Shown here: positions 8,842-45,209 of the stretch, in pieces
Layout of the letters: each line of letters opens with the position of its first letter
Numbering within the stretch: the first letter of the stretch is position 1
Source of the DNA: an uncultured virus (IMG/VR IMGVR_UViG_3300006149_000734)
Lineage: Duplodnaviria; Heunggongvirae; Uroviricota; Caudoviricetes
Length of the DNA stretch: 64,000 nucleotides
Direction: 5' to 3' (one strand)
Virus record (IMG/VR): IMGVR_UViG_3300006149_000734
Program-made: the position numbers and the translations under genes
Notes under the pieces: generated by a model
Database searches by the model: none
What the model was told of the DNA's origin: nothing
Seen by the model: the letters and a program-made list of their open reading frames with translations, nothing else

Positions 8842-8865
8842 GCGAATACCGCAGATTTTCTGAAA

Positions 8866-9888
8866 TTATTTCACCTGTTCATGGTGTCGGTAGGCGAGGT
8901 GCGCCAGATCAATCAGCCGGATTCCCAGCGTGTTTGCGTTGCCCTGTTGGGCTGCGCCCCCGCTCTGGTAGAAAAGCTGGACGGTCTTTCGGTTCGGCTG
9001 GTTCGCCAGACTGTTTACCCAGCGCAGGGGAATGCTGGACGCTCCGTAAATCGCCCCGGCGAGACCGCCTGTGATTGCCCCGATGGTGTCTGCGTCCCCG
9101 CCCATGTTGACCGCCGCTACCAGCGCGTCCTCGAAGCTGTCCGTGTCCCGGATGGCGTTCATGGCGCAGATCAGGCTGGACACGCAGTAGCCGGACGGCT
9201 CGACCTTATCGCCGGGGAGCATATTCCGAATATCAGCCGTTTTCGTCTCTGCGAATTCCTTTGCTTCCTCTGCCGACAACAAATCCGAGTTGACGATGGT
9301 GTTGATTGCGTCCGTGTAGTACAGGACGGTCAGGGTGCTGTGCTTGTGCCAGTGCGTCATCTGCGCTATGCGCACTGCGGCTTCCAGGGCTTTGTCCCGC
9401 TGGTAGTAAAGGGCGGGGTAGACTGCCCTCATCAGCGCACCGTTCCCGGCCGTCCCGCCGTTGCTGGCCTTGTCGTGCGCTTTGGCAGCATCGAGCCAAT
9501 CCTCCAGCTGGATGCGGTCGCTGCGTCCCATCCTCGAAAGCACTGCCGCACAGCAGCCGCCCACATCCTTTGGGTGCGTTCTGAACCAGCGCAGGAAGTT
9601 CGCCCCGACCATCTGGTAGGGATTGTCCCCGTCTGCGGCGATCCCCTCTGCGACCGCCAGCGTCATCTGCGTGTCATCGGTGACCTCCCCCGGCTCGACA
9701 CTCAGCCAGCCGCCGCCCAGCATTTCCCGGACGGTTCCGTGCTTGCGCTGGATTTCCCCTGCGTTCATGAATTCCAGGGGTGCGCCGAGAGCGTCCCCAA
9801 TCGCCACGCCGAGCATTGCGCCCTCGTAGCGGTCAAGCTGTGCGTTCATCCTGATTGTGTTGATGAATCTGTCATTTGTCCCTGTCAT
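8866..9888 (-). CDS. ADP-ribosylglycohydrolase (DraG/ARH family)
   Basis: GDALG, TDDTQ, GNGALMR, GGDADT motifs; RBS GGGAGG. Confidence 0.95.
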   Translation of the reverse strand: MTGTNDRFINTIRMNAQLDRYEGAMLGVAIGDALGAPLEFMNAGEIQRKHGTVREMLGGGWLSVEPGEVTDDTQMTLAVAEGIAADGDNPYQMVGANFLRWFRTHPKDVGGCCAAVLSRMGRSDRIQLEDWLDAAKAHDKASNGGTAGNGALMRAVYPALYYQRDKALEAAVRIAQMTHWHKHSTLTVLYYTDAINTIVNSDLLSAEEAKEFAETKTADIRNMLPGDKVEPSGYCVSSLICAMNAIRDTDSFEDALVAAVNMGGDADTIGAITGGLAGAIYGASSIPLRWVNSLANQPNRKTVQLFYQSGGAAQQGNANTLGIRLIDLAHLAYRHHEQVK

Positions 9889-10087
9889 TGTTGACCTCCC
9901 CTTTCTCGATTGCCGCCAGATAAAACTCCGCGGCATCGTTCAAAAAATCCGAACGGCTGTAGTCCGGGTTGCTCCGCTTTACCCGGAACACATACTCATC
10001 AATCGCCCTGCGGATGCTGTCGTTGAGGTACATGGTGTACCGGGTCCGCTCATCCTTCAGCTTTTTGGGTCTCCCCATCGCGCCCAT
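9872..10087 (-). CDS. Ribbon-helix-helix regulator
   Basis: GRPKK, YTMYL strand, SRSDFL helix; overlaps ARH start. Confidence 0.7.
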   Translation of the reverse strand: MGAMGRPKKLKDERTRYTMYLNDSIRRAIDEYVFRVKRSNPDYSRSDFLNDAAEFYLAAIEKGEVNNDRDK

Positions 10088-13081: not shown

Positions 13082-13393
13082 TTAATTCCTTTCTCCGATT
13101 AAAATGTCCAGTTTGGTTTCCATTCGGGTAAGCTGTTCTGTGGTAGCCATTTGCTTGTTCTCCAGCTTCTCCATGCGGTCTTTCACTTCGTCCAGGGAGT
13201 GCTTGAGGGATTTCATTTCCTCATCCCTCTTGCTGATCCTCACTTCCTGTGCGGCGGTCTGCTTCTCAATCTCTGCCAGACGGCTCAGTTCCTCGCTGTT
13301 GCGTTTCACCTTGCCCTCCAGCCGGATCAGCCAGACCACGCCGCCGATAATCGTTACCAGCCCGATGCTGTTGACCAGTTCCAGAATCTCCAT
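13082..13393 (-). CDS. TM plus coiled-coil protein (lysis-associated)
   Basis: RBS GGAGG; hydrophobic N-terminus, heptad repeats. Confidence 0.7.
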   Translation of the reverse strand: MEILELVNSIGLVTIIGGVVWLIRLEGKVKRNSEELSRLAEIEKQTAAQEVRISKRDEEMKSLKHSLDEVKDRMEKLENKQMATTEQLTRMETKLDILIGERN

Positions 13394-14525
13394 TCATTCC
13401 ACCTCCTTTCCCCCGCCGCTCCGGTCCCTCCGGGTCTGCCCTTTGCAGGACGAAAGTCTCTGAAATCTTCTTTCTCAGCTTGTAGCTGTTGAAATGCTTC
13501 ATCACGCCCATGTAACTCATCAGGTTCGGGCGTATCTGTTCGAGGGTTGCGTTTCCCTCTGCGTACTGCCACTGAATCCATTTCAATCCGCGCTTTATCT
13601 TTTTGGCAGAGGATTTCCGCAGTTTCCTGTGGGTAGACCATACCCGGAAACCGACAAACTCAATGCCGCAGCGTATCGGGCGTATGCTGGTTTTCCCGTT
13701 GAGGTTCAGCTTCAGTTCTGTGTTCAGAAACCGCTCCACCTGTTCCTTCACCGTCTGGAGGTGCTTTTTGTCATCGCCGAGCACCAGCATATCGTCCATG
13801 TACCTCATGTAAAAATGCTCCCGCAGTTCGTACTTCACGAATTGGTCTGCTTCGTTTAGGTAAAGGTTGGCGAACATCTGGGAGGTCAGGTTGCCTATCG
13901 GCATCCCGCACTCCGTCAGCCGCTCCACCTCCGCGCCCTGCGCTATGTCTGCGTCCAGCGGCAGTCCGAACGCTTCCCGGTCGCAGTTCACGATCCGCTC
14001 CAAAAGCCACAGGAGGTCTTTGTCCTTTATCCTGTGTTCCAGAATCCGCAGGAGCGTGGCGTGGTCTACCCGGTAGAAGTATTTGGTGATGTCCATCTTT
14101 AGGCAGTACCACTCCCTGCCCGTCTCTTTGCCCCGCCTGTCCGCTTGCCGCAGCCAGTATTGGAGCCGGTTGAGGGCGGTGTGTGTCCCCTTGTCAATTC
14201 TGCAAGCGTAGCTGTCGTAGATGAATTGGCTGTCAAAAATCGGGTTCAGCTGGCGGTAAATCGCCCACTGGACTACCCGGTCTTTGAAGCGCAGTGCCAT
14301 GATGAGCCGCTTTTTCGGCTCTGAAATGATGAATTTGTGGTATTCTCCTATCTCGTAGGTCTTGCTCTGCAGTTCCCGCTGGATTGCCAGCAGTTCTTCC
14401 TCCAGGTTCGCCGAAAAACGGAGGACTTCGTGCCTGTACCTCTTGCACTTCCGGGCTTTGAGGTACGCCTCGTACAGATTTTCAAAACTGCAGATCGTCT
14501 GGTAGATGCCGCCTATCCGTTTCAT
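13266..14525 (-). CDS. DGR reverse transcriptase
   Basis: FKDRVVQ, KMDITKYF, GMPIGNLTSQ, RYMDD; likely start MKRIG at 14525 with GGAG RBS. Confidence 0.95.
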   Translation of the reverse strand: MKRIGGIYQTICSFENLYEAYLKARKCKRYRHEVLRFSANLEEELLAIQRELQSKTYEIGEYHKFIISEPKKRLIMALRFKDRVVQWAIYRQLNPIFDSQFIYDSYACRIDKGTHTALNRLQYWLRQADRRGKETGREWYCLKMDITKYFYRVDHATLLRILEHRIKDKDLLWLLERIVNCDREAFGLPLDADIAQGAEVERLTECGMPIGNLTSQMFANLYLNEADQFVKYELREHFYMRYMDDMLVLGDDKKHLQTVKEQVERFLNTELKLNLNGKTSIRPIRCGIEFVGFRVWSTHRKLRKSSAKKIKRGLKWIQWQYAEGNATLEQIRPNLMSYMGVMKHFNSYKLRKKISETFVLQRADPEGPERRGKGGGMNGDSGTGQQHRAGNDYRRRGLADPAGGQGETQQRGTEPSGRD

Positions 14526-14714
14526 GATCCGCTTTCTCCATAAAAAAATGCCGTGCGTAGCAGCGTTCGGCTTTCGCCTACTGACTGCTTTCACGGCAAT
14601 CCAGTTTTTCGCCTTGCGCCGCTGGCTGCGGCCTTCGGTGGGGATATGTGTCCCTTTTGCCCCGTGCGCTGTCCGCGTCCCCGTAGGGGCGCGGCTTCTG
14701 GCTTGCGGGGCGAG

Positions 14715-14829
14715 AGCGGCGCGGAAGCCGATGTTGCCATTGGCGTTCGACCGGGGGTTGTTCAGGTTCAGCGCAGACGCACCTGCGTTCGCACCGTTGT
14801 TCCAGTTCCCGCCGCGAATCGGCAACCGC
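14715..14829 (-). repeat. DGR template repeat (TR), 115 bp
   Basis: Near-copy of 15308..15422 with 10 AAY codons. Confidence 0.97.
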
Positions 14830-14867
14830 ATCGACACAGCCCCCATGTTTTTCCCTTGCGGGGTCTG

Positions 14868-15218
14868 CTACTGCTTCATCGCCTTAATCCACCCGCCGAG
14901 CATGGCTCCGATCTCCGAGAGCATCTTCGACCATATCTCGTATTTCTTCATCGGGAGGTAGCGCATCTCTTTGTTCGCCGCCAGCCGGATAAATCCCCGC
15001 AGTACCTCCAGTTCCACATCTGCGTCCTGCAGTGTGGTCTTTTTGTAGTACTTCTTGTTGGCGGTGATGATCAGCCTGTAAAACGAGTACATGGTCTGCT
15101 TGATGTCCGCTGCGAGAGCGTACCGCTCCGACCGGGGGAATTGCTCAAGGGCTTTGTTTGCGTATAAAATCATATCCTCGGTTTTCTGGAGGATTCTAAG
15201 GTCGTTTCCTTTTTCCAT
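14868..15218 (-). CDS. avd: DGR accessory variability determinant
   Basis: QFPRSERYALA..EIGAMLGGW; lies between target gene and TR. Confidence 0.92.
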   Translation of the reverse strand: MEKGNDLRILQKTEDMILYANKALEQFPRSERYALAADIKQTMYSFYRLIITANKKYYKKTTLQDADVELEVLRGFIRLAANKEMRYLPMKKYEIWSKMLSEIGAMLGGWIKAMKQ

Positions 15219-15247: not shown

Positions 15248-15270
15248 GGGGATGGGCTATCGCCCACCCC
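15248..15270 (-). promoter_or_regulatory. GC-rich hairpin downstream of VR (target-recognition-like)
   Basis: GGGGTGGGC-GATA-GCCCATCCCC; GRNA-type tetraloop. Confidence 0.65.
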
Positions 15271-15289
15271 CCAGATTGCCGGGTGCAGA

Positions 15290-16408
15290 TTACAGATTAC
15301 CGTAGTAAGCGGCGCGGAAGCCGATGCCGCCATGGGCGCTCGACCGGGGGTTGTTCAGGTACAGCGCAGACGCACCTGCGAGCGCACCGCTGAACCAGTG
15401 CCCGCCGCGAATCGGCAACCGCTCACCAAGGTTGCGCATCCAGTGACCGCCCCGGTTGTCGTAGGCTTCTGCGTCACCGTCCGGCATCAGGCAGAGAGCC
15501 AAAGCCCGCGCCGGGACGGTCAGGCCGCTCTTTGCCGCCGTTGCGGTGAGCATCTGGTATCCGTAGGGAGCCTCGACCGTCTGCTTATGCGCAAGGGCTC
15601 CGGCGATAAGCTGGAACGGCTTTCCTGCGCTTGCCGTGCCGGGGTCTGCGGTGTAGTCGTACTTCAAACTCCCTGCAGTCCCCGGTGCGACAAAGTTCCC
15701 GTCTTTGTCGAGGGCTTTCCAGAGGGTGCTGCTGGGTCCCTGGATGTCCTTGCTGGCATCGGCGTAAATGTCGGCCATTGCGTTTCCGTAGGGGATGACC
15801 TGGATTTCCCCGTCCACCAGCCGCAGACCGCCAGCCCACTCCCAGACGTTGCCGCAGAGGTCGGCGATGCCCGTTGCGCTATTGAAGTCGTGATACCAGC
15901 TGTCGGGACCGCTCCCGGTCGCGGTGCGCTGGATTCTGCCGCTGCCGTCCCTGGCGCAGCTTGCGAAGCCCTTTTCATAGGGTTTGGCGTTGTCTGCGCC
16001 GTAGCTGGTGTTGCCGTGTGGCTGTGTGCCGTTCGCCTTGCACCACAGGGCAATCGCCGCATAAAGGGCATTGGTGGGCAGATGCCATCCCGCGCCCTTG
16101 GCGCGGCAGTACGCTCTCGCTTGGTCGAAGTTCATGTTGACGGCGGGGTCTTTCCCTGCCAGACTGTAGGCTCTGCCGTTCACCACGATGGCGTGGTACT
16201 TGCCGATGTACAGGCAGTCGTAGGTAACCTCGTTGCAGATGAACGCATCGTGAATGTCCTGCGTCCCGCCCGTGATCAGTTCGGAAAACTTCATCTGCGG
16301 GATGCGCACCATGATGGAGGGCATACCCATATCGTCAAAAATGACGGTATTCTTGCCGCCGCTCATGCCCTCAACGGTCAGCTTCAAGCTGTCAAAATTC
16401 GCTTTCAT
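15290..16408 (-). CDS. DGR target protein, C-type lectin/FGE-fold, probable receptor-binding protein
   Basis: DLCGNVWEW, RGG..W, IGFR motifs; C-terminal VR. Confidence 0.92.
   Translation of the reverse strand: MKANFDSLKLTVEGMSGGKNTVIFDDMGMPSIMVRIPQMKFSELITGGTQDIHDAFICNEVTYDCLYIGKYHAIVVNGRAYSLAGKDPAVNMNFDQARAYCRAKGAGWHLPTNALYAAIALWCKANGTQPHGNTSYGADNAKPYEKGFASCARDGSGRIQRTATGSGPDSWYHDFNSATGIADLCGNVWEWAGGLRLVDGEIQVIPYGNAMADIYADASKDIQGPSSTLWKALDKDGNFVAPGTAGSLKYDYTADPGTASAGKPFQLIAGALAHKQTVEAPYGYQMLTATAAKSGLTVPARALALCLMPDGDAEAYDNRGGHWMRNLGERLPIRGGHWFSGALAGASALYLNNPRSSAHGGIGFRAAYYGNL
15308..15422 (-). repeat. DGR variable repeat (VR)
   Basis: 11 mismatches to TR, all at TR adenines. Confidence 0.97.
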
Positions 16409-33192: not shown

Positions 33193-34236
33193 TTAAAGCG
33201 AGAAGCTGTCGCTCACTGCCCCCTTGAGGAACACGCCGAGGTCTGCGGAGGTGATCTCCGGGTCGGTGCAGAGAAGCCCCTCGATAAACTCCGTATGGGT
33301 GGATTCCTCGCCGGGGTACTGCTGGACGGAGGTGTACTGCCCGTTGCCCAGCATATCCCAGGTGAAGGTGTACCCTGCGCTGGGTTCGTCAATGCTGGGC
33401 GCGCTGGTGGTGTAAACGAGCAGGGCATCGTTCGGGTTGCAGATGAATTCCATCTTGTCTGCCGCTCCGATGGGCGCAGCGTTGTGGACGCTCTCTGCCA
33501 CCACGATTTCGTCCAGCCCGAAAAGTTGCGCCAGAACATTCACGGTCACGCTTGCCGGGTTCGCTTCGCTGCCCTGGTACTTGATGCGCTCCAAAATGGA
33601 GGGGTTGACCGTGAGGGCGGTGAATACGTTTGCGCCCAGCACCATCTTGTTCGGCTTGCGAAGCCCGGACAGGAGCATCCGGGTTCTCAGCTGGTGGAAG
33701 AAGGTCACGGGGTCGCTGTTCTCGTTGTCAAACTGATAAAACTCGTTTGCCCCTGCGGTGCCGGTGTTGATGCCCTTGTAGACATGGGTCCAGCTGTCCG
33801 GGTTGAAATACTTTCCCGCCCAGATGCGGTCGAGGTGGATGTTCATCTGCTCGGCCACCCAACGCACCTTGCTCCGGCGCGGGTCGATGACGGCGGGGGC
33901 GTTCGTCCGCTGGAAGTCCAGCGTGCTGATCTGGTCTACGCCCGTGATTACCTGGTCTACGGTGCAGTGATAGAATTTATCCCGCTTGCCGTAGATACCC
34001 GGTGCGACATGGCCGAATTCCGGCTTGCGGCTCATGTTGTCCCGCGCCAGATCGCCCTTGTCAAACTCGTAATAGTGCGCCGAGGAAGTCGGCACGGGGA
34101 CGATGGGGAATACCTTTCGCGCCACGAATCCCGCCATGTTCTGGAAGTAGGACAGGCAGATGTTCGTCAGATAAAGGTGCGGCTTAAACACCCCTTTCTG
34201 GATGCTGGCCGCCAGTTCCTGTGTAGTGAGTGCCAT
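33193..34236 (-). CDS. Major capsid protein
   Basis: 347 aa; LTNI..Y, FPIVPV, PSAGYTF; position. Confidence 0.88.
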   Translation of the reverse strand: MALTTQELAASIQKGVFKPHLYLTNICLSYFQNMAGFVARKVFPIVPVPTSSAHYYEFDKGDLARDNMSRKPEFGHVAPGIYGKRDKFYHCTVDQVITGVDQISTLDFQRTNAPAVIDPRRSKVRWVAEQMNIHLDRIWAGKYFNPDSWTHVYKGINTGTAGANEFYQFDNENSDPVTFFHQLRTRMLLSGLRKPNKMVLGANVFTALTVNPSILERIKYQGSEANPASVTVNVLAQLFGLDEIVVAESVHNAAPIGAADKMEFICNPNDALLVYTTSAPSIDEPSAGYTFTWDMLGNGQYTSVQQYPGEESTHTEFIEGLLCTDPEITSADLGVFLKGAVSDSFSL

Positions 34237-34703: not shown

Positions 34704-35933
34704 TTACCTCCCCATGTATTCCGCTTCGTACTGCGCCGCCAGTTCGGGGTTTTCCTCGAACGCCTTGATGATAGCGTCAGGGGAGGACAGCCCGTCCGCA
34801 GCGGCTTTCTGCAGTTCCTGCGCCTTGATGCCGATGGTCTGCGTGGTGCCGGCACTGCCCTGACGGTTGCTGCCGATTTCCCCGAACAGGCCGCTCTTGT
34901 TCAGCGTGGTCAGGCTCTCATCCAGCAGGGCGATGTAATCATCGTAGAATGTGCCGCCAGCTTTCTTGAGGTCGTACAGCTTCGCCGCCAGTTCCGTGGC
35001 GTTCTTCCCCAGCGGCTCGTATTTCTTTGCCACAGAGGTGAGCCGCTCGACCTCAAGGCTCTTTCTCATGGCTTCCAGTTCCTCGTTCTGCCGTTTGGTG
35101 AGTTCCTGGAAGTCAGCCAGTGCCTTTGCCACCTCCGGGTGGAGTTCGCTCCCGCCGCCCTGCGCCACGGGTGCGGGGGTGACGGGGGGCTGTGCGCCCT
35201 TTTCTACGCCGCCCTCCGGCGCGGCCGGCTCTGCGCCGCCAGCGGCGGCTCCCTGTCCGTCCCCGTCAGGAATCCCATACCTCTTTTCGAGGTCGGCGAG
35301 TGCAGCCAGTTCCTCCGGGGTCATCTTGCTCTTGTCAATTTTCATGGTATCCACTACCTCCTTCTCAATTTTGCCGCTCTGCGGCTGTGTCGGATCATCG
35401 CCGAGATTGTACTGCCCCAGCAGTTTTGCCAAGGCTTCCTGTTGCGCCGTGGATTTCTGGATTCCGGCTTCGCTCTGCGGAGTGTCCATCTGTTTCCCGG
35501 CTGCCCACGCCCCTACTGCGCCCTTGACGGTTTCGGCGAATTCGTCCAGGCTTTGCAGCATGAGGGCTTTTTTCTTTTCTGCGTCCAGCGTGTCATCGCA
35601 CAAAATGGAGCAGAAACTGTCCGAAAGCGCATAGCAGTTGTCGAACATCTCACTGGTAACGTGCCGCATTTGTTCCCGGTTGAGACTTGCGCCGAACGTC
35701 TGCGCTTCCTTTTCCACATCATCAACAGGGTTTTCCTCCTGCCCGTCCGTTCCCGTTGCATCCTCGAAGCCTTTTTTGAGCCAGCGGAGGAATTTCTGGA
35801 ACAGCCCCATGTCTGGGTCTGTTTCCTGCGGCTGTTCCCCGCGCTTGAACAGGCGAATGTGAGCGTCTGGGTTGGCTCCCCGGTCTACGAGGTCTACGCT
35901 GGTTACGGACAGATTCTTCAGTTTGGTTGCCAT
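34704..35933 (-). CDS. Capsid scaffold-like protein
   Basis: VDLVDRGAN N-terminus, coiled coil. Confidence 0.7.
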   Translation of the reverse strand: MATKLKNLSVTSVDLVDRGANPDAHIRLFKRGEQPQETDPDMGLFQKFLRWLKKGFEDATGTDGQEENPVDDVEKEAQTFGASLNREQMRHVTSEMFDNCYALSDSFCSILCDDTLDAEKKKALMLQSLDEFAETVKGAVGAWAAGKQMDTPQSEAGIQKSTAQQEALAKLLGQYNLGDDPTQPQSGKIEKEVVDTMKIDKSKMTPEELAALADLEKRYGIPDGDGQGAAAGGAEPAAPEGGVEKGAQPPVTPAPVAQGGGSELHPEVAKALADFQELTKRQNEELEAMRKSLEVERLTSVAKKYEPLGKNATELAAKLYDLKKAGGTFYDDYIALLDESLTTLNKSGLFGEIGSNRQGSAGTTQTIGIKAQELQKAAADGLSSPDAIIKAFEENPELAAQYEAEYMGR

Positions 35934-35935: not shown

Positions 35936-36391
35936 CTACTTCTCACCTCCCTCCATCGGTTCCCGTATCGCCCTGCCCTCGATGGAGAACATGGTGTACT
36001 CGCCGTTTTTTATCTTCTCCCAGACTTCATCGTCTGTGATTTTGAAGCCGATCCACCAGCCCTGCGGCAGAGCGTCCTGCGGGATTCCGAGGGCGTTTGC
36101 CTTTTCCTTGGTGAATACGATACTTTCAATCACTTGCCCGATGCCGCCGCGCCTGTGCATCTCTCCGGCTGTCCCGAATTCTGCCACATACTCGTATGCG
36201 GCGTTCTCCAGTTCCTCGGTGTCGATTGCGTCCTGCTGCCAGTCTACAATCTGTTCGCCGTCCACCCGGACTGCCACGTTCGCCCAGCCGAACACGAGCC
36301 GTTTGTCATCGTCCGATTTCATCACCGTCAGGGTGTTTTTCTGCGGCTGCGCCCGTGCCTTTGTCAGCTGGTTGTAGGTCTTTGCTGCCAT
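35936..36391 (-). CDS. XkdF-like prohead protease
   Basis: RLVFGW, GEMH, GWW, FSIEG. Confidence 0.85.
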   Translation of the reverse strand: MAAKTYNQLTKARAQPQKNTLTVMKSDDDKRLVFGWANVAVRVDGEQIVDWQQDAIDTEELENAAYEYVAEFGTAGEMHRRGGIGQVIESIVFTKEKANALGIPQDALPQGWWIGFKITDDEVWEKIKNGEYTMFSIEGRAIREPMEGGEK

Positions 36392-36452
36392 GTGCATCCC
36401 TCCGTTTCTGTTTTACGGTTTATTGGTATATCCGTGTTGTCTAAATCCCGCG

Positions 36453-36481
36453 CAAAAAAGCCGGGCAGATGCCGGGGCTTT
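36453..36481 (-). terminator. Terminator after MuF/partner gene
   Basis: AAGCCCCGGCATCTGCCCGGC followed by T run. Confidence 0.65.
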
Positions 36482-36482
36482 C

Positions 36483-36851
36483 TCACTCCAGATTACGGTA
36501 AAATTCTATCAGTTCCTCGGTGTTGCTGACTTCCGCGAGGACGCTTTCGCCGCCGTCCATGCAGATTTTGCAGAATTCGTCCCGGAAGTTCTCATAGGTG
36601 AGTTCGACAAACTCCCACTCTCCGGGGGCGTATGCGTCTTTGTCCGCGATGAAGGTGAAGCCTGTCGCAGTCTTTTTCCCCAGCTTGCCCTTTATCATGT
36701 GCGGGTGTCTCGGCGGGGAAACAAAGCAAATCCCTTTGAAACCATGATAGTCCGGGTCTACCTTCAGCGCAAAGTCAAAGAATTTCTTTTCTCCGGGCAA
36801 TCGGTAGGCGTAGAGCTTCCCGTTGTCCACGATGCCTGTCTGCTTTGCCAT
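36483..36851 (-). CDS. Hypothetical protein, candidate MuF immunity/partner
   Basis: 122 aa, starts 13 nt after MuF stop, RBS GAGGTG. Confidence 0.7.
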   Translation of the reverse strand: MAKQTGIVDNGKLYAYRLPGEKKFFDFALKVDPDYHGFKGICFVSPPRHPHMIKGKLGKKTATGFTFIADKDAYAPGEWEFVELTYENFRDEFCKICMDGGESVLAEVSNTEELIEFYRNLE

Positions 36852-36864
36852 GTCGCTCACCTCT

Positions 36865-39800
36865 CTAAAATGGGTTTTGGTTGTAGAAGTCCAGCCCAAG
36901 GATTCCCCTCATGCTATCTTCCTCGACTTTCGTTGTGACGGTCACGAAGTCCTCTATGGGTACGCCGTTGAATTCCGTTATTCCCGCTGCGCTGAATTTG
37001 TCCAGCAGGGCTTTCCGTCTGCGCTCATCCTGGCAGGAGATTCCTACAAAGGTATCTGTGCTGATGCCGTGCCGGAACAGGATTTCGTTGTCGCTGGTGA
37101 AGCTGTTATTGCTGTACTTGCTGCCAGTTTCCGACTTGATGAAGTCCATTGAACCGAGCCGCTTCTGCCATCTGGCATCAGTCGTTCTTGCCGCTCCGAA
37201 GCTGTCACCTCTGTGCGCGTACCAGTCTGTGCGGTTCAACACGTCCGGGCTGATGATCACCCGGTAGTCATCGCCGAGAAAGGACATTGCATAACTCATA
37301 TCCGTCTTTGTGCCAAGCCGGGTGAATACGCCGTCACTGCCGCCCGACTTCATGTCTGCGCCGGGGCTTGCGCCGCATTTCTTCATGCCGGAGGTAATGC
37401 GGTAATTGGTGGCGGCGAAGCCGTCACTCTGGCAGATGGCTACCACGGCATCCGGGCTGTCAACGCCAGCCCAGACGTGCGTTGCTCCTGCTTTCCTGTA
37501 GAGCATTGACGCTGAATCGTCCACATAGGTGCTGTAGCCGGGGAATACCTCTTTCAGCTGCATTCCCTGTATGCGCTTATCGTCTATTCCAGCTTTTGCC
37601 AGAATATCGTCTATCGCCTTTTCCCGCGCACTCCCGGTCAGGTATCTGGCTTTTTCAAACGCTTTCGGGTCCTGCTGCCACGCCAGCCTTGTTTTGCGGA
37701 GCAGAAGTTCCTCTGCGTCTGTGGGGTCTGCGGTCAGCGCACTCAGCCCGGTCTTGTCAAACACGGTCTGCATTACCTTTTTGTCGGCTGCGGCGTTCCC
37801 CGTGGCGGGGATTCTCACTCGAAAATAACCCGCCAGCCCGAATTGCTCTTGATTGCCTATGTCGGAGTAGATTTCCATTTCGCCCTGATCCAGCGTCATT
37901 ATCTTGTAAGCGTCCAGCTTCATTCCGACATCCTTGCGGCTGTAGCCGCCCTGCGCATCCCGCGACAGAAATTCCATCTGTTGGCTGTACCCGCGTTTCT
38001 TTGCGTTTTGCGCGGCTTGCTTCCAGCTTTCCTCTGTCAGCTTCCCGGAAAACTCGTAGTAGTCCGTACCGTCAATCGTCACCCTGCGCCCGGTCAGGTT
38101 CAAGTTCTCCACCATGCCGCCGTCCGACCGAACGGCTACGCCGTGTTGGTTCTTTGGCAGGACGGAGAGATCATCCATGACCTCTGACATCCTGTAGCCG
38201 CTCTCCGTCTTGACCGGGGCTGTCGGTGCTGGTGTCGCTGCGGCGGGTGGTGTCTTAGGTGCGGCCGGCTTCGTGGTTTTCGGCTTCGTGGTCTTGGGCT
38301 TGGGCAGGGGAGTGGTCTTTGGCGATGCCGTGGTTGCTGTTCCTGCCAGTTCATCTGCCCATTTGAACGGGGACGCTGTGCCGTTGCGATCCGCTTCCAG
38401 TTCGGTGTAAAAGTCTGCAAAGGTTTGCCGGAGGTTCTGTTTGCGCTCCAAGATGGAATCAAGCAGTTGCTCTGCCGCTTGTCCTTTGCCGCACACACCC
38501 TCTGCGTAGCTGCGGAAGATTTCACGGTATTCTGCGTCCGGGATGGCTTCCACCCGTTTGATGTACTTTAGCGTGTCCTGCAGGTCGAGGTCGATTTCCC
38601 CGTTGGCGTAGCGGCGATACAGGGTGTTGTGGATCGGCTCTGTTTCGCCGTACTTGCTGTTCGGGTGGTAGGTGTAACTCAGCTTGTGGCTTGCAGGGTC
38701 TTTGAGGTATTTGAACGCCTGTTCTTTGTCGATGCCGATAATGCGCCCGGACGAATCTGTGACGAAGTTCCCGCCGTGGCTGTCATAGTTCCCCAGCAAC
38801 CAGTCAGTGACGGATTCCCTCTGAAGCTGTTCTGCCGTCCCTGCCGGAAGCTGACCGCCGTTGTACTGCCACTGTTTGAAGTCCGTACCGCTGGTCGTGT
38901 TAATGCGCTGCTGGAATGCGCCGAATTTCCCGTCAAGCGTCCCCGTCCCCACTGGAACGGCACTGTCCGGGTCTACGATACTCTGCACCTTATACCCGGC
39001 TTCCTGCGAGTAGGCTCTGAACATCTCCGGCTTTCCGCTCTTGCTCTGGGCGGGTTTGAATAACCACTCTTGCCCGTCTGCATCCTCGTAGATGTACATT
39101 TTCCCTGTGCCGCCGAGATTGGCGGGTCCTTTGTAGGTCATACCGTTCGGGATGGGAATGTCCGGGGGGATGGTGGGCTGGTTCGGGTCTGTAGGCTGGA
39201 CGGGCTGTGCGGCCGCAGGGGGCTGTGTCTGCGGTTGTTGCTGTGGCTGCCCCTGCACATCCATTGTACCCGCTTGCGGGGCTGGATTCAAGTTCGTACC
39301 CTCGATTTCCTCATAGGCTACGGCGCAGCGGCATTGCGGGTGTCCGGGCGGGAGCATCTTCCCGTTGCTGAATGGTTCGTCCATGTTGCGCTTTTCCTCA
39401 TCCATCTTGGAGCATATGGGGCAGACGCGCTCATCGTAAGCGGTCAGCCAGACCTTCATGCAGTCCCCGATGTAGCCCTGCGCCTGTGCGTCCTTTGTCG
39501 CTCCATACGCTCCGGCGTTGTAGGCGTATGCCAGTTCTGTTCGGGCGATGGACTGCGCCCTGTAGCGGTGCTGCCTTGCGGCGTACCGCGCCGATGCTTC
39601 CTGCGCTTTCTTCTCTGCGGTCTCCGGCTTGCCTTTCGGGTGTGCCTTGATGTACGCCGCCTTGACCGTATCGTAGTACCGTGCGTTCGCCAGGGCTTGG
39701 GGCTTTGTCAGCCCGATGCAGGGGCGGATCATCCGCGCCGCTTCGTCCGGCGTGACGGCTGTGTACCCACTGCAGTGCGCTATTACAGCGTTCAGCGCGT

Positions 39801-40218
39801 CCCGCTGCTCTTGGGCGAGGTTCGTCACCAGTTCTGCGCCGTGCTGTTTGATGAAGTCCATACTTGCGCTGACGGACGGCTCGTACACGAAATAGGGGTA
39901 TTGCGCCTTGACCTCCTGCGCCGCTGCGTCTGCCGCCGCTTGCCATTTGGGGGCGAGGGTGGAAGTCACCAGTTTGGAGTAGTCTTTCTGCCATTTCTGG
40001 AATTGCTTTTCAGTCAGCCCCCCGGCGAGGTACGCTTCCCGCAGTTCCTTGTAGGTCACGCTGTTCTGCTGGGCGTTCCAGTTGGACACGAGGATTTCTA
40101 CGGTCTCCGGCTCTGCCGCCGTCAGGAATGATTTCAGCTTATTCAGCGTAGCCTTTTTGCCGCCCGGTTGCTTCTTTGGCTTCTTAGGGGGCGGCTTTGC
40201 CTTTGTAAAGCGTATCAT
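36865..40218 (-). CDS. MuF/phage minor head protein with kinase-like and putative ART-like extensions
   Basis: IARTE, CPIC, HPQCRC (MuF); LFKP, DSHGGN, IDKEQAF (kinase-like); GVFTR, NEILF. Confidence 0.85.
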   Translation of the reverse strand: MIRFTKAKPPPKKPKKQPGGKKATLNKLKSFLTAAEPETVEILVSNWNAQQNSVTYKELREAYLAGGLTEKQFQKWQKDYSKLVTSTLAPKWQAAADAAAQEVKAQYPYFVYEPSVSASMDFIKQHGAELVTNLAQEQRDALNAVIAHCSGYTAVTPDEAARMIRPCIGLTKPQALANARYYDTVKAAYIKAHPKGKPETAEKKAQEASARYAARQHRYRAQSIARTELAYAYNAGAYGATKDAQAQGYIGDCMKVWLTAYDERVCPICSKMDEEKRNMDEPFSNGKMLPPGHPQCRCAVAYEEIEGTNLNPAPQAGTMDVQGQPQQQPQTQPPAAAQPVQPTDPNQPTIPPDIPIPNGMTYKGPANLGGTGKMYIYEDADGQEWLFKPAQSKSGKPEMFRAYSQEAGYKVQSIVDPDSAVPVGTGTLDGKFGAFQQRINTTSGTDFKQWQYNGGQLPAGTAEQLQRESVTDWLLGNYDSHGGNFVTDSSGRIIGIDKEQAFKYLKDPASHKLSYTYHPNSKYGETEPIHNTLYRRYANGEIDLDLQDTLKYIKRVEAIPDAEYREIFRSYAEGVCGKGQAAEQLLDSILERKQNLRQTFADFYTELEADRNGTASPFKWADELAGTATTASPKTTPLPKPKTTKPKTTKPAAPKTPPAAATPAPTAPVKTESGYRMSEVMDDLSVLPKNQHGVAVRSDGGMVENLNLTGRRVTIDGTDYYEFSGKLTEESWKQAAQNAKKRGYSQQMEFLSRDAQGGYSRKDVGMKLDAYKIMTLDQGEMEIYSDIGNQEQFGLAGYFRVRIPATGNAAADKKVMQTVFDKTGLSALTADPTDAEELLLRKTRLAWQQDPKAFEKARYLTGSAREKAIDDILAKAGIDDKRIQGMQLKEVFPGYSTYVDDSASMLYRKAGATHVWAGVDSPDAVVAICQSDGFAATNYRITSGMKKCGASPGADMKSGGSDGVFTRLGTKTDMSYAMSFLGDDYRVIISPDVLNRTDWYAHRGDSFGAARTTDARWQKRLGSMDFIKSETGSKYSNNSFTSDNEILFRHGISTDTFVGISCQDERRRKALLDKFSAAGITEFNGVPIEDFVTVTTKVEEDSMRGILGLDFYNQNPF

Positions 40219-41615
40219 TCCTCATCCTCCCCGTCAGGCGGCTTTTCTTCGCCGTCTGCGCCCTCCTGCGGGTCTACAGGCGGGGCTTCCGGCTCGTTCC
40301 CTTGTTGTTCCTTGCCGTCCCCTGCGCCGCCGTCCTGCGGCTGTTCTGGCGGCTTCTGGTTGCCCATGTACGCTGTCTCCGGGTCGCGCTCCGGGAGGTC
40401 TGCGGCAAGCCGCAGATAGTCCTCCATGCTTTCGTCCGGGGTGATCGCGCCGATGCCGACCATCTTGGACACGAATTCCCCAAGCTGTCCCAGGTCTTGC
40501 GTCTCGATGTCCCCGTGCGTCAGAATCGGGTAGTCGGTGATCCCGGCGAAATGCTCCCCGTTGATGTCTATCAACCGGGGGATTGCCTGATTGTTGAAAA
40601 CCTCGCAGATCAGGTCGAGGAACGCTCCCAGCGCAACGCCGAACAGTTCCGTCTTGTCGCTGGAAAGGGCGAAGCTGCCGACCGCCTGGTGTCCCAGCAG
40701 GACGAAATCGGCGAGGACGGTCATCGCCATGCGGGTATCGTACCGCTCTATGATCTGGTTCGTGTCAAACTGCCGCCGCCCCCCGGTGGAGGTCAGCGAA
40801 AACTTCCAGCCGTTGCCCAGCACGATACCCTCGCGCTCATCCCTGCGGACGCTGCGCACGATGCGCTCTGCCTTTGCCAGTTCTGCGGCGTATTCATCGC
40901 TCCAGATGTCCACGCCCTCCGGGGCTTCCAGAACGGGCAGTCCGGCGAGGTCGCGCTCTATGCCGATGCCCTCTATCTCTTGTATGCGCCGCTTGAAGTA
41001 CCAGTTGCGGTAGCAGTTTCGGAGGACGCTGCGCCCCTCCGGGTTTCCCTTGCGGCTCTTGGTCTTGAAATGCAGGGCTTTCTCTATCGGAATGAATACC
41101 TGTTCATATAGCGGTGGGGCGCACTGGACTAAGCCGATGAGGTTGTCCTTTTCATCGTATTTCCATTCCCAGAGCGTGTCCTGCGAACGAATCGGCAGCT
41201 TGCGCCAGCCGATCAGCCCGTCCGTGTACTTGCTGTTGGTCTCCGGGTTCTTCGAGCGTCCCATGCGCCGCTTGTAGACGATTTCGTGGTAACTCCACCC
41301 GTATGTCAGGAAGGAAAGCACCTCTGAGATGAAGTCGCTCCACGTTTCCTCCATATCGTCCATACAGGTGCGCACGAATTCTGCAGCATCCAAGTCTGCC
41401 TGTTCTGTCCCTGCTTCCTGGATGCTCCACTTGCTTTGGCGCATCAGCATTTCGGTGGCGAACAGGATAGCTCCGATGATGTCATCGTTCTCGGACATCT
41501 CTTTGTAAACCTCGATGCCCTTTCGCCCTTGCAGTTCCCGCAGAAATTCCTCGTATATCCAGCCTGTGTCAAAACGGAACAGGCCGGTCTTGCCGTATTC
41601 TCTGAATGTGTTCAT
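40215..41615 (-). CDS. Portal protein (DUF935-like)
   Basis: NPEGRSVLR, IGIERDLAGLP, GSFAL. Confidence 0.9.
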   Translation of the reverse strand: MNTFREYGKTGLFRFDTGWIYEEFLRELQGRKGIEVYKEMSENDDIIGAILFATEMLMRQSKWSIQEAGTEQADLDAAEFVRTCMDDMEETWSDFISEVLSFLTYGWSYHEIVYKRRMGRSKNPETNSKYTDGLIGWRKLPIRSQDTLWEWKYDEKDNLIGLVQCAPPLYEQVFIPIEKALHFKTKSRKGNPEGRSVLRNCYRNWYFKRRIQEIEGIGIERDLAGLPVLEAPEGVDIWSDEYAAELAKAERIVRSVRRDEREGIVLGNGWKFSLTSTGGRRQFDTNQIIERYDTRMAMTVLADFVLLGHQAVGSFALSSDKTELFGVALGAFLDLICEVFNNQAIPRLIDINGEHFAGITDYPILTHGDIETQDLGQLGEFVSKMVGIGAITPDESMEDYLRLAADLPERDPETAYMGNQKPPEQPQDGGAGDGKEQQGNEPEAPPVDPQEGADGEEKPPDGEDEE

Positions 41616-41641: not shown

Positions 41642-43123
41642 TTATCTGCGCCAGTAGCTGTCTTTGCTCATGTCACCGCCGCCTATGCTGGAGGTCGGTT
41701 TGCTCATCAGGTATAAAATCGCCTGGACGGTTGCGTCCACCGTGTCTTTGTAGGTTGCTCCGGGGAATCGCAGAAGGTCATCTATCAGGTCTGCTTTCCA
41801 CGGCGCAAATTCCGGGAACAGGACATTTCCCGCTTCAAAGTACGGCGCGACCGACAAAGCCCGATCCTCTTTGCTTCCCTTTGGGTTGAACGGTATCATG
41901 CCCGGTATGGTCTTGCCGAGGTAGTCAATGATGGCGGGGCCGTTGGCTTTGTCCTCCACCACCTTTGCCCTCGCTTTCGGATGCTTTGCGGTCAGGCTCT
42001 TTATCGCCGTGACGCTGGTGGTGAAGTCCATCTTGTCGTTTACCACATCCACAAAGAACAGCTGTGCGCCCTTTCGAGCCATCACGATCCCGGCGCACTT
42101 TGCGCTGGCTTCGCTGTTCTTAAACGGCAGGTCCCACGACTGTATGATGGTTGCCCCGGCTGGCAGTTCGGTGTAGGTATGGTTCATCCATTCCCGCTTG
42201 AATATCGTACCTCCGGCCGGCTGCGGTCGCTGCTGGTACATTGCGCTCCAGTCATAAATGCCCACCGTTGCCCGGATTTTCGTCAGTTCTGTCAGCGGGT
42301 ACTTGTATGTCCACAGGGCTTCTCCCTCTTTGCGGGGGTCCCTGGGGTGTCTGTGCGCTTCTGCGACCGCTGGAAGCAGAAGCACCTCCCATTGGTCTGC
42401 GCTGGGGTCCTTCTTTGCCAATTCCAAAAGCCGCCCAGCGAGGTCATCCTCGTGCCAGCGGGTCAGCGTTATCAGGATGGAGCCCTCTCGCTCCTGCCGG
42501 GTGTAGAGCGTGGATGTGTACCACTCCCACAGCTTTTCACGGTAGGTGCTGCTGTTGGCTTCTTCGCGGTTCTTGATGGGGTCATCAATGATGATGTAAT
42601 CGCCGCCCATGCCTGTAATGCCGCCGCCGACACCTGCGCCCCTGTAACTGCCCCTGTGTCCCACAATCTCGAAGATGTCCGAGTTGCGCAGGGCGTGTCC
42701 CGTCACTGTGCGGATGTTCTTCCCGAATAATCGGGATTCGGGGAACAGTTCGATGTAGGGCTTGCTGTCCATGATCCTCTGCACATCTCGGTTCATCCTC
42801 TGCGCCAAGTCTGCCGAGTAGGATGTGCTGATTATGTTTGCGTCCGGGTTTCGCCCGAAGATGAATGCCGGAAGTTTGCGGCTCACCAGTTCGCTCTTTC
42901 CGTGGCGGGGCGGCATGAATACCATCAGCCGCCGCACTTCCTTTTTCGTGAAAGCGTCCAGGTATTCGCACAGAAGTCTGTGGTGCCAGTTCATTTGATA
43001 GCGGTCATCCGTGAACAGGCAAAATTCCGCGATTGACCTCCGCGCCTTTTCGCGGGCGAGTTCCTTTCGGAGCAGTTCTACATTGCGTGGGTTATTCTGC
43101 AAAAATCTTTCCAGTGATTTCAT
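41642..43123 (-). CDS. Terminase large subunit
   Basis: MPPRHGKS Walker A, IIIDDP, YQQRP, DTVDA. Confidence 0.95.
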   Translation of the reverse strand: MKSLERFLQNNPRNVELLRKELAREKARRSIAEFCLFTDDRYQMNWHHRLLCEYLDAFTKKEVRRLMVFMPPRHGKSELVSRKLPAFIFGRNPDANIISTSYSADLAQRMNRDVQRIMDSKPYIELFPESRLFGKNIRTVTGHALRNSDIFEIVGHRGSYRGAGVGGGITGMGGDYIIIDDPIKNREEANSSTYREKLWEWYTSTLYTRQEREGSILITLTRWHEDDLAGRLLELAKKDPSADQWEVLLLPAVAEAHRHPRDPRKEGEALWTYKYPLTELTKIRATVGIYDWSAMYQQRPQPAGGTIFKREWMNHTYTELPAGATIIQSWDLPFKNSEASAKCAGIVMARKGAQLFFVDVVNDKMDFTTSVTAIKSLTAKHPKARAKVVEDKANGPAIIDYLGKTIPGMIPFNPKGSKEDRALSVAPYFEAGNVLFPEFAPWKADLIDDLLRFPGATYKDTVDATVQAILYLMSKPTSSIGGGDMSKDSYWRR

Positions 43124-43643
43124 CGAGGGCAGCCAGTTCCTCATCTGAAACTTTGCTCAGGTCTATGGAGCCGAAGGAAACCTCACCCGCGATGGTCTGC
43201 TTTCCCTCCGTGCGCTCCGTAACCTCTCCCCGGCTTATACGCTCCAGCTTCGCTGCCACGTCTACCATCGTGGCTACGTCCCTGGGGGTCATTTCGTCCA
43301 CTGGTATCCTCTGCAGGGCTTGCAGGGATTTGACCAGCATTGCTTTTGCGATGCCGACATGGTTCTTGCGCATTTCGGCGATGCCTTTTTGGAGTTCCCT
43401 GCAGGAGCGTCTGTCCAGTTCATCGTCCCATGCGTCAGCCCGGATTCCCCAGTGCCACTGGCTGCTCCACCGTTTCATGAGCGCATCGGATTTGGACAAC
43501 TTTTCGGCCACTTTGTGTAGGCTCCGTTCTGCGCCCATATCCCGGTATGCGGCAAACGCTTGAAATGCCTGTGCGCTCTCTCCATCCTGCCGCTCCCACA
43601 GTTCGGGCGGCGCGTCCTGTCTGGTGATTTTCTTTCCTGCCAT
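43092..43643 (-). CDS. Terminase small subunit
   Basis: WERQDGES..YRDMG HTH; precedes large subunit. Confidence 0.8.
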   Translation of the reverse strand: MAGKKITRQDAPPELWERQDGESAQAFQAFAAYRDMGAERSLHKVAEKLSKSDALMKRWSSQWHWGIRADAWDDELDRRSCRELQKGIAEMRKNHVGIAKAMLVKSLQALQRIPVDEMTPRDVATMVDVAAKLERISRGEVTERTEGKQTIAGEVSFGSIDLSKVSDEELAALDEITGKIFAE

Positions 43644-43649: not shown

Positions 43650-45209
43650 TCACCTCAGTTCGCTTTCCAGTCCGTTCGCCGCTTCCCATTCCTGCTTCAG
43701 CGTGGCGTATGGTATCTCTTTGCCGTCCCGGACACATATCCCCGCCACGTTGCCCGTAATCCGGGCGTAGCGGCTCACTATCACGTCAACGTACTTTGGG
43801 TCTACCTCCGTCAGAAAAGCCGTCCTGCGGGTCAATTCTGCGCCGATGAGGGTCGTTCCGCTCCCGCCGAAAAGGTCAAGGACGATTTCGCCCTCTTGGG
43901 TGCTGTTTTCGATTGCCCTTTGCGCCAGTTCCACGGGTTTCTGTGTCGGGTGTTCCGTTCCTGTTTCCCGGTTTACCTCCCAGAGCGTGTTTTCCTTCCC
44001 CTCACTGTAAAGGTAAACGCCTTTCCCTTTTTCCACTCTCAGGTAGCGGCTCTTTTTGTCTTTGGGCGGCTTTTCGGTGATATGCATCTTACTTCCTGCG
44101 CCGTCCGTGATGGTGATCCCGCCCGATATGGTGGTTTCCATCGTGCCGCTTTCCCTGCGGGTAACGCGCCAGACGGTATGTTGCGCACGGTCTCCGAAAA
44201 AGCGAGGGGCGTTCTCCCCCTTGGAGCAGTAAAAGCACGGCTCGTGCGCCCACTGGTAGTCTGCGTGTCCGAGGGCGATGCCGTTCTTTGCCCAGATGAT
44301 GGTCTGCCGCTCCAAAAGCCCAGCGGCGGTCATGGCGTAGTAGAAGTCCTGCCGTCTGCTGCTGGAGTGCCAGATGTAAAACGCCGCATCGTCTATCGTG
44401 AATGCGACTGCGTGTCGGAACGCCGGGAGAATGAGTTCCTGCACCAGACTGTCCTCTGTCAGATTGTCATTCTCCAGCATCTCAAACTTTCCGCTCTGAC
44501 TGACGTAACTCACACCGTAGGGCGGGTCTGTAAATACGCAGTGCGCCAGCTTCCCGTCCATCAGCCGTTCCACGGTTGCCCGGTCGGTTGCGCTGCCGCA
44601 TATCACTCTGTGTTCGCCCAAAAGCCACAAATCGCCCGGTCTGGACATGGGGATTTGCGGCGGCGGGACTTCATCGTCTACGCCGTCCGCTTCGCTGTCC
44701 CCGTCCCCGGCGATGGCGGTCAGCAGATTCGCTATCTCATCCTCGGTATAGCCGGAGAGGATGACCGGGACTTCCCCTGTATCCATCTCTGCTATGAGGT
44801 CTGCGATCTTCGTGTTGTCTATCTCGGAGAGTTCTGCCAGCCTGTTGTCCGCTATCAGGTCTGCCCATTCCTCCGCTTCGCTGCTGTAGTTCTGGTAGTC
44901 CACGGGTACGCATTCCGCACCGAATTCCAACGCCGCCGCCAGCCGCCCGTGTCCCCGGACAACAAATCCGCTCTGGTTGCTCACCGTGATTGGAGCGCGC
45001 CAGCCTTGCGACTGGATGATGTGCGCCAGCAGATGGATTTGGTCTGCCGGGTGCTGGTTCGGATTGCGGGGGTTGCCCACGAGGTCTTTCGGGTCTATCA
45101 ACTTGTCGAAAGCGCAGAAAACGGGAATGTTCCCTGCTGTCGCTCTCGCTTCGGCTGTGCTTTGGTATGTAACTTTCATGGTCTCTCGCTTGGTTTTCTT
45201 CTTTGCCAT
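43650..45209 (-). CDS. ParB-like domain fused to N6/N4 DNA methyltransferase
   Basis: NPRN, GHGRL, ADNRL; DPPY, HPTQKP, DLFGGSGT. Confidence 0.92.
   Translation of the reverse strand: MAKKKTKRETMKVTYQSTAEARATAGNIPVFCAFDKLIDPKDLVGNPRNPNQHPADQIHLLAHIIQSQGWRAPITVSNQSGFVVRGHGRLAAALEFGAECVPVDYQNYSSEAEEWADLIADNRLAELSEIDNTKIADLIAEMDTGEVPVILSGYTEDEIANLLTAIAGDGDSEADGVDDEVPPPQIPMSRPGDLWLLGEHRVICGSATDRATVERLMDGKLAHCVFTDPPYGVSYVSQSGKFEMLENDNLTEDSLVQELILPAFRHAVAFTIDDAAFYIWHSSSRRQDFYYAMTAAGLLERQTIIWAKNGIALGHADYQWAHEPCFYCSKGENAPRFFGDRAQHTVWRVTRRESGTMETTISGGITITDGAGSKMHITEKPPKDKKSRYLRVEKGKGVYLYSEGKENTLWEVNRETGTEHPTQKPVELAQRAIENSTQEGEIVLDLFGGSGTTLIGAELTRRTAFLTEVDPKYVDVIVSRYARITGNVAGICVRDGKEIPYATLKQEWEAANGLESELR

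Follow-up and report, generated by a model that had tools for sequence, protein, structure and literature searches.

Jamet et al. 2017 (PMC5576092) defined toxins that are fused to the phage head domain MuF and followed by small immunity open reading frames (ORFs), and Iyer et al. 2017 (PMC5512222) gave an account of polyvalent proteins of phages and conjugative elements, whose domains include MuF, ADP-ribosyltransferase (ART) and kinase domains. The closest described system is that of Bxa, encoded by a Bacteroides stercoris prophage (Alexei et al. 2024, PMC11699363). As presented there, Bxa consists of a MuF domain, a middle domain of about 300 aa (residues 323-620, non-toxic and with no function given) and a C-terminal arginine-specific ART, and two proteins neutralise it: Bsi, a small binder that was modelled in the active site, and the ARH1-like hydrolase BAH. 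Another MuF toxin with two immunity proteins, Apk2, is described in the same article. Injection together with the phage DNA is assumed for MuF toxins and polyvalent proteins, few of which have been characterised. The present analysis concerns a stretch of 64,000 nucleotides (the window) from an uncultured virus of the Caudoviricetes (IMG/VR record IMGVR_UViG_3300006149_000734), and in particular a prophage gene whose 1117-aa product joins a MuF domain, a kinase-like module and an ART-like C-terminal region, along with the 122-aa ORF that follows it and an ADP-ribosylhydrolase (ARH) gene at the prophage end.

That this MuF protein carries two enzyme-like cargoes, as an initial annotation of the locus had proposed, is confirmed, and the interpretation offered there is supported to the extent that computation allows. 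The gene is best read as encoding a polyvalent MuF effector of a temperate prophage, similar to the Bxa/Bsi/BAH system and equipped with an extra kinase module, a reading to which we assign a probability of roughly 0.62.

The gene (36865..40218, minus strand) is an open ORF and, judging by its relatives, real rather than a chance ORF: 69 proteins match its C-terminal part, 243 match its kinase-like part, and an exhaustive search of representative clusters with the kinase module returned 1355 at E <= 1e-3, of which 944 reach <= 1e-10 and 316 reach <= 1e-30. Residues 1-305 (39304..40218) form a MuF (SPP1 gp7-like) head-morphogenesis domain, matched by PF04233 (E 1.1e-13, 52.3 bits against a cut-off of 29.6), TIGR01641 (E 1.7e-10, 41.2 bits against 39.65) and phrog_28652 (E 2.3e-64, residues 26-303); within the packaging module, the gene is the immediate downstream neighbour of the portal gene, as is usual for MuF/SPP1 gp7 proteins. 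The motifs IARTE, CPIC and HPQCRC, quoted when a MuF domain was first recognised in the first ~300 aa, are all found within these residues. The remainder of the protein comprises a Q/P-rich linker (residues ~306-361; 39136..39303), a kinase-like module with a protein-kinase-like fold resembling PI4KII-alpha, CtkA and HipA (residues ~360-625; 38344..39141), a P/T/K-rich linker (residues ~640-686; 38161..38301), an alpha/beta and helical sub-domain (residues 687-880; 37579..38160) and an ART-fold catalytic core, DarT-like in fold (residues 881-1117 and the stop codon; 36865..37578), all on the minus strand. Both linkers, read from the translation, coincide with those named in the initial annotation, as does the kinase-like span, which had been put at ~39140..38360; of the motifs cited there, GGTG, LFKP, DWLLGNYDSHGGN and IDKEQAF are present in residues ~362-505, and THVW, GGSDGVFTR and NEILFRHGI in residues 913-1052. 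With a MuF domain, a modelled kinase fold and a modelled ART fold, the protein has the two or more effector-type domains by which polyvalent proteins are recognised. PADLOC returned no match for it, for the 122-aa protein or for the ARH.

The predicted catalytic set of the kinase-like module comprises K388 (LFKP), D479-x-H-x-x-N484 (DSHGGN) and D497 (IDKEQ). Across an alignment of 30 homologues (33-57% identity), no variation is seen at K388, D479 or D497, and hardly any at N484; in terms of the kinase class, K388 corresponds to the ATP-binding Lys, D479 and N484 to the catalytic-loop Asp and Asn, and D497 to the metal-binding (DFG-like) Asp. The AlphaFold2 model built on this alignment (pLDDT 93.6, pTM 0.90) retrieved kinases only in Foldseek, the best TM-scores being 0.50-0.54 for CtkA and 0.52 for PI4KII-alpha. 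Pfam gave a marginal match to PI3_PI4_kinase (PF00454; E 0.04, residues 463-502, 14.3 bits against a cut-off of 27.1), and the cut-offs of PF00454 and PF07804 are not reached by this protein; sequence searches of solved structures with the kinase region or the kinase profile found no match, and a cluster look-up of ten kinase-bearing proteins yielded no informative names. One homologue, P0263, contains two kinase copies, the second of which (27% identical to the module, E 6e-25) passes the cut-offs of both HipA_C (34.1 against 30.5) and PI3_PI4_kinase (33.7 against 27.1). Because of the fold matches, the invariant catalytic residues and this second copy, the module is predicted to be an active atypical kinase of the PI3/4K-HipA branch, and the HipA/PI3-4K-like call made at the outset is upheld. 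Some proteins, of 243-293 aa, consist of the module alone, whereas in others, which reach 6330 aa, its position varies; it is common in phages of Bacillota and Actinobacteria. Homologues also occur in mycobacteriophage proteins annotated as 'minor capsid and ADP-ribosyltransferase domain fusion protein' or 'ADP-ribosyltransferase', where the order is a VG15 capsid domain or N-terminal region, the kinase module and a C-terminal ADPrib_exo_Tox ART.

The C-terminal region was aligned with 37 of its 69 relatives (38 sequences), nearly all of the 69 having a MuF domain. In the model of this 431-aa region (pLDDT 92, pTM 0.90), the last ~220 residues adopt an ART fold, for which the top eight Foldseek matches are DarT structures (probability 0.97-0.99; solved entries 7omu, 8baq, 7omv and 7yk3). 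Invariant in the 38 sequences are R940, S951, D955, G959-G960, F965, R996-T-D-W999, D1005, G1008 and N1044-E1045, and 13 invariant residues, polar or aromatic, line the ART cleft. R940, F965 and E1045 share their order and a similar spacing with R51, Y71 and E160, reported as the catalytic residues of Thermus DarT (PMC9967889). A reading of R940, S951 and E1045 as an R-S-E (cholera-toxin-like) triad was rejected, the Arg being in a helix 11 residues before the Ser and not in strand 1. Aligned by hhalign with nine DarT sequences taken from genomes, the region gave a single match, which puts NEILFR on the DarT catalytic-Glu strand with a probability of 11%; PF14487 (DarT) had no match at E <= 0.1, and NCBIfam and sequence searches of solved structures had none either. 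A DarG macrodomain or NADAR partner was not seen, the neighbours being the family-less 122-aa protein and head genes, and the linked eraser an ARH of PF03747. By its model, the C-terminal domain has a DarT-like fold but falls outside the DarT family.

The ARH gene (8866..9936, minus strand), a candidate enzymatic immunity gene, is the last minus-strand gene, lying beyond the lysis cassette at the prophage end. Its product is a DraG/Tri1-like ADP-ribosylglycohydrolase (PF03747, E 2.1e-58), the closest solved relatives being DraG (E 1.6e-42) and entry 6dre (E 8e-37), which we take to be Tri1. According to a survey, the ADP-ribosylglycohydrolase family is much rarer in viruses than are macrodomains (PMC9503650). 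Of 20 long viral records that contain the ART gene, 12 have PF03747, among them nine of the ten that are at least 90% complete. In G001, the nearest genome compared, a near-identical prophage (97-98% identity across window 10694-64000) has an ARH at the same end, just 85% identical, against 97-98% elsewhere; since the ARH occupies the same prophage end and window 1-8898 has no match at all to the compared G001 region, the ARH travels with the phage.

The target of the ART is most likely a protein arginine, with nucleic acid as the alternative, because the associated eraser is DraG-like; characterised DraG/Tri1-like ARHs remove ADP-ribose from protein arginine. The alternative keeps the same architecture and gives the ART core, like DarT, a nucleic-acid substrate (bases or ends of DNA or RNA). 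The protein would then be a counterpart, delivered by phage, of the DarTG defence toxin, and might stall host replication or mark DNA at injection. Likeness in fold does not fix the substrate, there is no DarT match in Pfam, and the linked eraser is a DraG/Tri1-like ARH rather than the macrodomain or NADAR that is paired with DarT; on balance, a nucleic-acid target is judged unlikely.

The association of the two enzyme-like modules was surveyed in the 150 best kinase-bearing representatives (clusters at <=50% identity), which are nearest relatives and not independent samples. The same DarT-like ART forms the end of 64 of them, and at least 75 carry an ART as well as the kinase; two kinase copies are found in 55 and three in one. 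Among the 84 kinase-bearing proteins scanned with Pfam, at least 11 end in the unrelated ADPrib_exo_Tox and five have NUDIX, the other domains being MuF, minor-capsid-2, Rho_N, 2H, SLT, WXG100_2 and LPD38. A functional link between kinase and ART is suggested by these sequences, because the kinase pairs with two unrelated ART families. The stronger proposition, that the two form a functionally coupled pair and not independent cargoes, with the ART maybe a phage-injected, DarT-like enzyme acting on nucleic acid, is tentative and, taken as a whole, doubtful. Under such coupling, the kinase could phosphorylate the ADP-ribosylated target or the ADP-ribose mark itself, thereby blocking host erasers; it could prime the substrate; or it could regulate the ART, for which the regulation of SdeA by SidJ offers an analogue. 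The frequency of the pairing thus raises a concrete question on two-enzyme effectors. It also bears on the initial annotation, in which no characterised MuF protein with a two-enzyme layout was known: in metagenomes the layout is widespread and not rare, a similar one is already annotated in mycobacteriophages, and the dual-immunity logic has been characterised for Bxa. In Mycolicibacterium sphagni (L158) and Mycobacterium hubeiense (L159), ORFs of 734-766 aa combine the kinase module with the ART core (model residues 242-407), which extends the kinase-ART pairing to Actinobacteria.

The 122-aa ORF (36483..36851, minus strand) starts 14 nt past the stop codon of the MuF gene and is preceded by a GAGGTG ribosome-binding site. 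Its product has no match in Pfam, PHROG or NCBIfam, and a look-up in the ESM Atlas returned chance-level scores (0.81-0.82) and no model. The position of the gene is conserved: of 120 confirmed viral loci with relatives of the C-terminal region, 80 were kept (ART identities 32-100%), three of which end inside the gene, and in all 77 with downstream DNA a homologue of the small protein directly follows the ART gene. It was detected by tblastn in 65 and by a hidden Markov model in the other 12 (E 1.5e-9 to 2.8e-48), where it mostly overlaps the stop codon. One locus, L018, encodes MuF and ART without the kinase and still has the small gene, and a role of the 122-aa protein as partner of the kinase was rejected on this ground. 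Where an orphan gene and a terminator had been described after the MuF gene, the gene stands, with its ribosome-binding site and its homologues, and a terminator is merely plausible: the possible intrinsic terminator at 36448..36490 (minus strand), a hairpin with a run of six U and a fold of -18.1 kcal/mol, does not rise above shuffled sequence (z -1.0), and no minus-strand terminator came out of a consensus scan.

A scan of genomes for ART homologues identified 44 loci. MuF-type forms are present in Dysosmobacter, Flavonifractor, Oscillibacter, Dethiobacter, Tissierellales, Halanaerobiales, Thermoanaerobacterium and Christensenellales; of the 14 MuF-type loci with downstream DNA, 13 have the small gene at E <= 7e-16, and the other (L126) at 1.9e-4. 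In 26 further loci (L132-L157), the ART core alone is conserved, in proteins of ~480-1160 aa, nine of which were scanned and had no Pfam domain; nearly all belong to candidate-phyla bacteria, mostly Saccharibacteria, and one is from a record titled Gammaproteobacteria. In 16 of the 20 non-MuF loci with downstream DNA, the next ORF is small and resembles the 122-aa family at E <= 0.1; six of the 16 reach E <= 1e-3, with 4.4e-8 as the best value. A homologue of the ARH of the window lies within 6 kb in 12 of the 26 non-MuF loci and in none of the 18 others. The ARH, singled out by the initial annotation together with the 122-aa gene, is thereby linked to the ART both across phages (nine of ten) and across phyla (12 of 26 loci). 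On this comparison of loci, the trio of ART, small partner and ARH is conserved over very different genomic settings.

Several individual loci may be described here. In Saccharibacteria (L134, L136-L141, L143-L146 and L152), non-phage proteins of 500-1160 aa end in the ART core, the next ORF, of ~130 aa (166 aa in L152), is weakly like the 122-aa protein, and an ARH is convergent or nearby. When the small-protein profile was run over 301 genomes of the same order, it matched only in G001, in the same prophage, and in G490, where a 123-aa homologue (L096, contig C42, 385-753, minus strand) is located among non-phage genes on a 2.2-kb contig. G490, which is 91% complete, gave no match with the whole protein or with the C-terminal-region profile, and ART and MuF were not found in it; its small gene could be an orphan immunity gene. 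Finally, a Synergistaceae contig (L131, 504-1770) has an ART-core fragment of 168 aa with a homologue of the small protein on either side (504-869 and 1420-1770), an arrangement that resembles the toxin-tip/immunity cassette arrays of polymorphic toxin loci.

The complex of the C-terminal region with the 122-aa protein was predicted, each partner having its own alignment, and three controls were run alongside. The ipSAE values were 0.86, 0.86 and 0.85, against 0.00 in all three controls; a mark of 0.86 is reached by 116 of 157 solved complexes and by two of 215 mismatched pairs. The runs share at least 92% of contacts, and the pLDDT of the partner is at least 88. On the ART side, the interface includes model residues 259-271, 279, 291-296, 318-321 and 356-357, taking in S951, D955, F965, D1005 and residues 1042-1043, just ahead of E1045; on the partner side, it includes loop 42-53, with the conserved His51. 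The geometry is of the immunity type, because the predicted interface covers invariant active-site residues, and the 122-aa protein is accordingly modelled as a protein that blocks the active site of the ART core. The small gene, initially put forward as a candidate immunity gene, behaves like one encoding a cognate immunity protein, both in its synteny (77/77) and in the predicted active-site complex (0.86 versus 0.00).

Strict synteny and a confident complex show partnership, not inhibition, and the 122-aa protein might thus serve the C-terminal region differently, as a chaperone for assembly or packaging or as an activating cofactor, its conservation reflecting a need of the fusion for it in folding, loading or ejection. 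Its gene is part of the late head operon, where the genes for protease, scaffold and capsid come after it, and the sub-domain of residues 687-880, which precedes the ART core, weakly resembles type III secretion system (T3SS) chaperone folds. However, the predicted interface falls on the invariant F965, S951, D955 and D1005 and on the residues just before E1045, and homologous small ORFs follow non-phage ARTs in candidate-phyla bacteria, where there is no capsid to be assembled. Moreover, G490 retains the small gene without the ART, and the Synergistaceae fragment is flanked by two copies of it, as in immunity arrays. A chaperone or cofactor in place of an immunity protein is, on this evidence, improbable. 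Lowest in probability is that one or both enzyme-like modules are catalytically dead and act as structural or DNA-binding capsid cargo (ejection or pilot proteins): the strand-1 His is variable, the Pfam kinase and ART models stay below their thresholds on this protein and the middle region of Bxa, likened by position alone, is reported as non-toxic in E. coli (PMC11699363), but the kinase keeps its Lys and both Asp without exception, and its Asn nearly always, in homologues down to 33% identity, the 13 cleft residues are retained in all 38 ART homologues, and a co-occurring dedicated binder and eraser would be pointless for a dead domain.

In the preferred reading, that of a Bxa-like polyvalent effector with a kinase module in addition, the carrier would be the MuF domain, whose translation is coupled to that of the portal gene and which would bring the protein into the capsid. 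The kinase module, taken as a complete kinase on its flexible linker, would phosphorylate a host substrate, and the C-terminal ART would use NAD+ to ADP-ribosylate the host target. Two layers of immunity may be envisaged. As predicted by modelling and synteny, the 122-aa protein would cover the ART active site and keep the enzyme silent in the producing or lysogenic cell, and the ARH, given its co-occurrence with the ART, would reverse the modification enzymatically. Packaging, injection, catalysis, target and toxicity are inferred in this scheme.

Several points weigh against this reading. Its support is computational throughout (folds, conserved residues, synteny and a predicted complex), and the score of the complex is the model's own confidence, obtained on custom alignments. 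A kinase fold can host other chemistry, for instance AMPylation or glutamylation. Regarding the ART, which the initial annotation considered the weaker of its two enzyme calls, the fold holds, as do the invariant NE residues, the THVW His does not: in the position of the classical strand-1 His of H-Y-E enzymes, His occurs in 19 of the 38 sequences, Tyr in 13 and Ala in three. In addition, no Pfam ART family matches the C-terminal region, its sequence homology to DarT is not significant at the hhalign probability given above, and the equivalence of R940, F965 and E1045 to the DarT triad is inferred from order and spacing. The ARH is ~27 kb from the ART gene and not adjoining it; it was not found in eight of the 20 viral records, seven of which are 71-86% or 61% complete and one 93%, which does not prove it absent from them, and its co-occurrence with the ART may in part reflect shared ancestry, related phages being kin. 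Lastly, the four public runs compared consist of contigs with flat depth and are thus uninformative on transcription or on separate expression of the small gene.

As for the genomic setting, the prophage is temperate and myovirus-like, lies on the minus strand and takes up the window between ~8.9 kb and 62.5 kb; it encodes a terminase, a portal, head proteins and a contractile tail, as well as a holin, an amidase and a diversity-generating retroelement. A large terminase-like gene (41642..43144, minus strand) is directly upstream of the Mu-type portal gene (40215..41615, minus strand; Portal_Mu, E 1e-33), whose stop codon is overlapped by the ATG of the MuF gene (ATGA). Downstream of the 122-aa ORF are an XkdF-type protease (35936..36397, minus strand; PF14550, E 6e-27), a likely scaffold gene (34704..35933), a gene for a cement-like protein and a likely capsid gene (33193..34236). 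The MuF-kinase-ART protein is 100% identical in the G001 prophage, and a 100%-identical locus is present in a record of an uncultured Oscillospiraceae bacterium. Sequence matching the window was found in 19 public runs from 11 studies, and this phage family is abundant in rodent gut samples. One public run, X8, recorded as RNA and labelled as a metatranscriptome, contains 0.99 of the sampled words, and its contigs span every bin of the compared stretch. A second contig of this run has 12 clustered substitutions at window 38314-38374, where the kinase module ends and the P/T/K linker starts, which suggests strain variants or recombination at a domain junction. The tail region includes the diversity-generating retroelement (13266-16408, minus strand), composed of a reverse transcriptase (13266..14846; RVT_1, E 1e-23), a bAvd gene (14868..15218; E 9e-34) and a target protein with a FGE-sulfatase/C-type-lectin-like domain (15290..16408), all on the minus strand, with a template/variable repeat pair of 115 nt that is 90% identical (14715-14829 and 15308-15422). 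The prophage also encodes a 1263-aa SbcC/SbcD-like fusion (Metallophos and SMC_N/AAA_23) and two DNA methyltransferases, one of the N6/N4 and one of the C5 type, located at window 56381-60172, 43650-45209 and 51815-53764 on the minus strand.

The locus marks out three families that are unnamed in current domain libraries, namely a DarT-like ART, its predicted cognate inhibitor of ~120 aa and a PI4K/HipA-like kinase module. The joint presence of ART, inhibitor and ARH in prophages of Clostridia and in chromosomes of Saccharibacteria points to a three-gene system which, in phages, might serve reversible ADP-ribosylation at infection. In literature searches combining MuF with DarT, or minor capsid with ART and kinase, no paper on a DarT-like ART or on a PI4K/HipA-like kinase borne by a MuF protein was retrieved.

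In comparison with individual enzymes, DarT is a standalone toxin in the DarTG toxin-antitoxin pair, with the DarG macrodomain as its partner, whereas the present ART is fused to a capsid protein. With Tre1/Tri1 and DraT/DraG the locus shares an ART paired with a DraG-family hydrolase that would reverse the mark; here, binding and hydrolysis would be split over two proteins, and the ART folds differ. The kinase module has the fold and the catalytic Lys/DxHxxN/Asp layout of PI4KII-alpha, H. pylori CtkA and HipA, although sequence similarity to them is marginal. Gene 54 of mycobacteriophage BK061312.1 and gene 15 of Aikoy likewise encode, in a head-gene context, a homologue of the kinase (26-39% identity, with E values as low as 3e-29) that precedes a C-terminal ART; in these proteins the ART is of the ADPrib_exo_Tox (R-S-E) type, the N-terminal domain is VG15 and the kinase-like part is unannotated.

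In common with the MuF polymorphic toxins (PMC5576092), the present gene belongs to a prophage, is located downstream of the portal gene, has a C-terminal toxin-like domain and is followed by an ORF of <150 aa; the kinase module sets it apart, the text of Jamet et al. 2017 never using the word 'kinase'. As in polyvalent proteins (PMC5512222), several effector domains are combined in a single virion-associated polypeptide, virion presence being presumed in our case, and one kinase-bearing relative has LPD38, a domain of polyvalent proteins. From the textual descriptions of Iyer et al. 2017 (PMC5512222), the ARTs in question belong to the Tox-ART-HYD2 (H-Y-D) clade, whereas the present one has a Glu and is DarT-like, and the kinase clade lacks the C-terminal subdomain and comes mainly from Verrucomicrobia-Chlamydia and Bacteroidetes, whereas the present kinase has a helical C-lobe. 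The present kinase and ART are thus set apart from those families by description, and may overlap with the alignments or supplements of that study.

With Bxa, Bsi and BAH (PMC11699363), the present locus shares a MuF domain, a middle region, a C-terminal ART, a small binder and an ARH. The middle domain of Bxa has the same size and position as the kinase module and is likened to it on those alone. The differences from the system as published lie in an ART that is DarT-like in fold and without a Pfam match, in a middle module with a kinase fold, in an ARH at the far end of the prophage rather than adjacent to the toxin gene, and in a host that is an Oscillospiraceae-type Clostridium instead of Bacteroides; the present system, moreover, is known computationally. 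The dual-immunity logic was already known, and what is new is a family of ARTs undetected by Pfam, an unannotated kinase module and their frequent pairing. By analogy, the locus appears to follow the logic of Bxa, Bsi and BAH with different parts.

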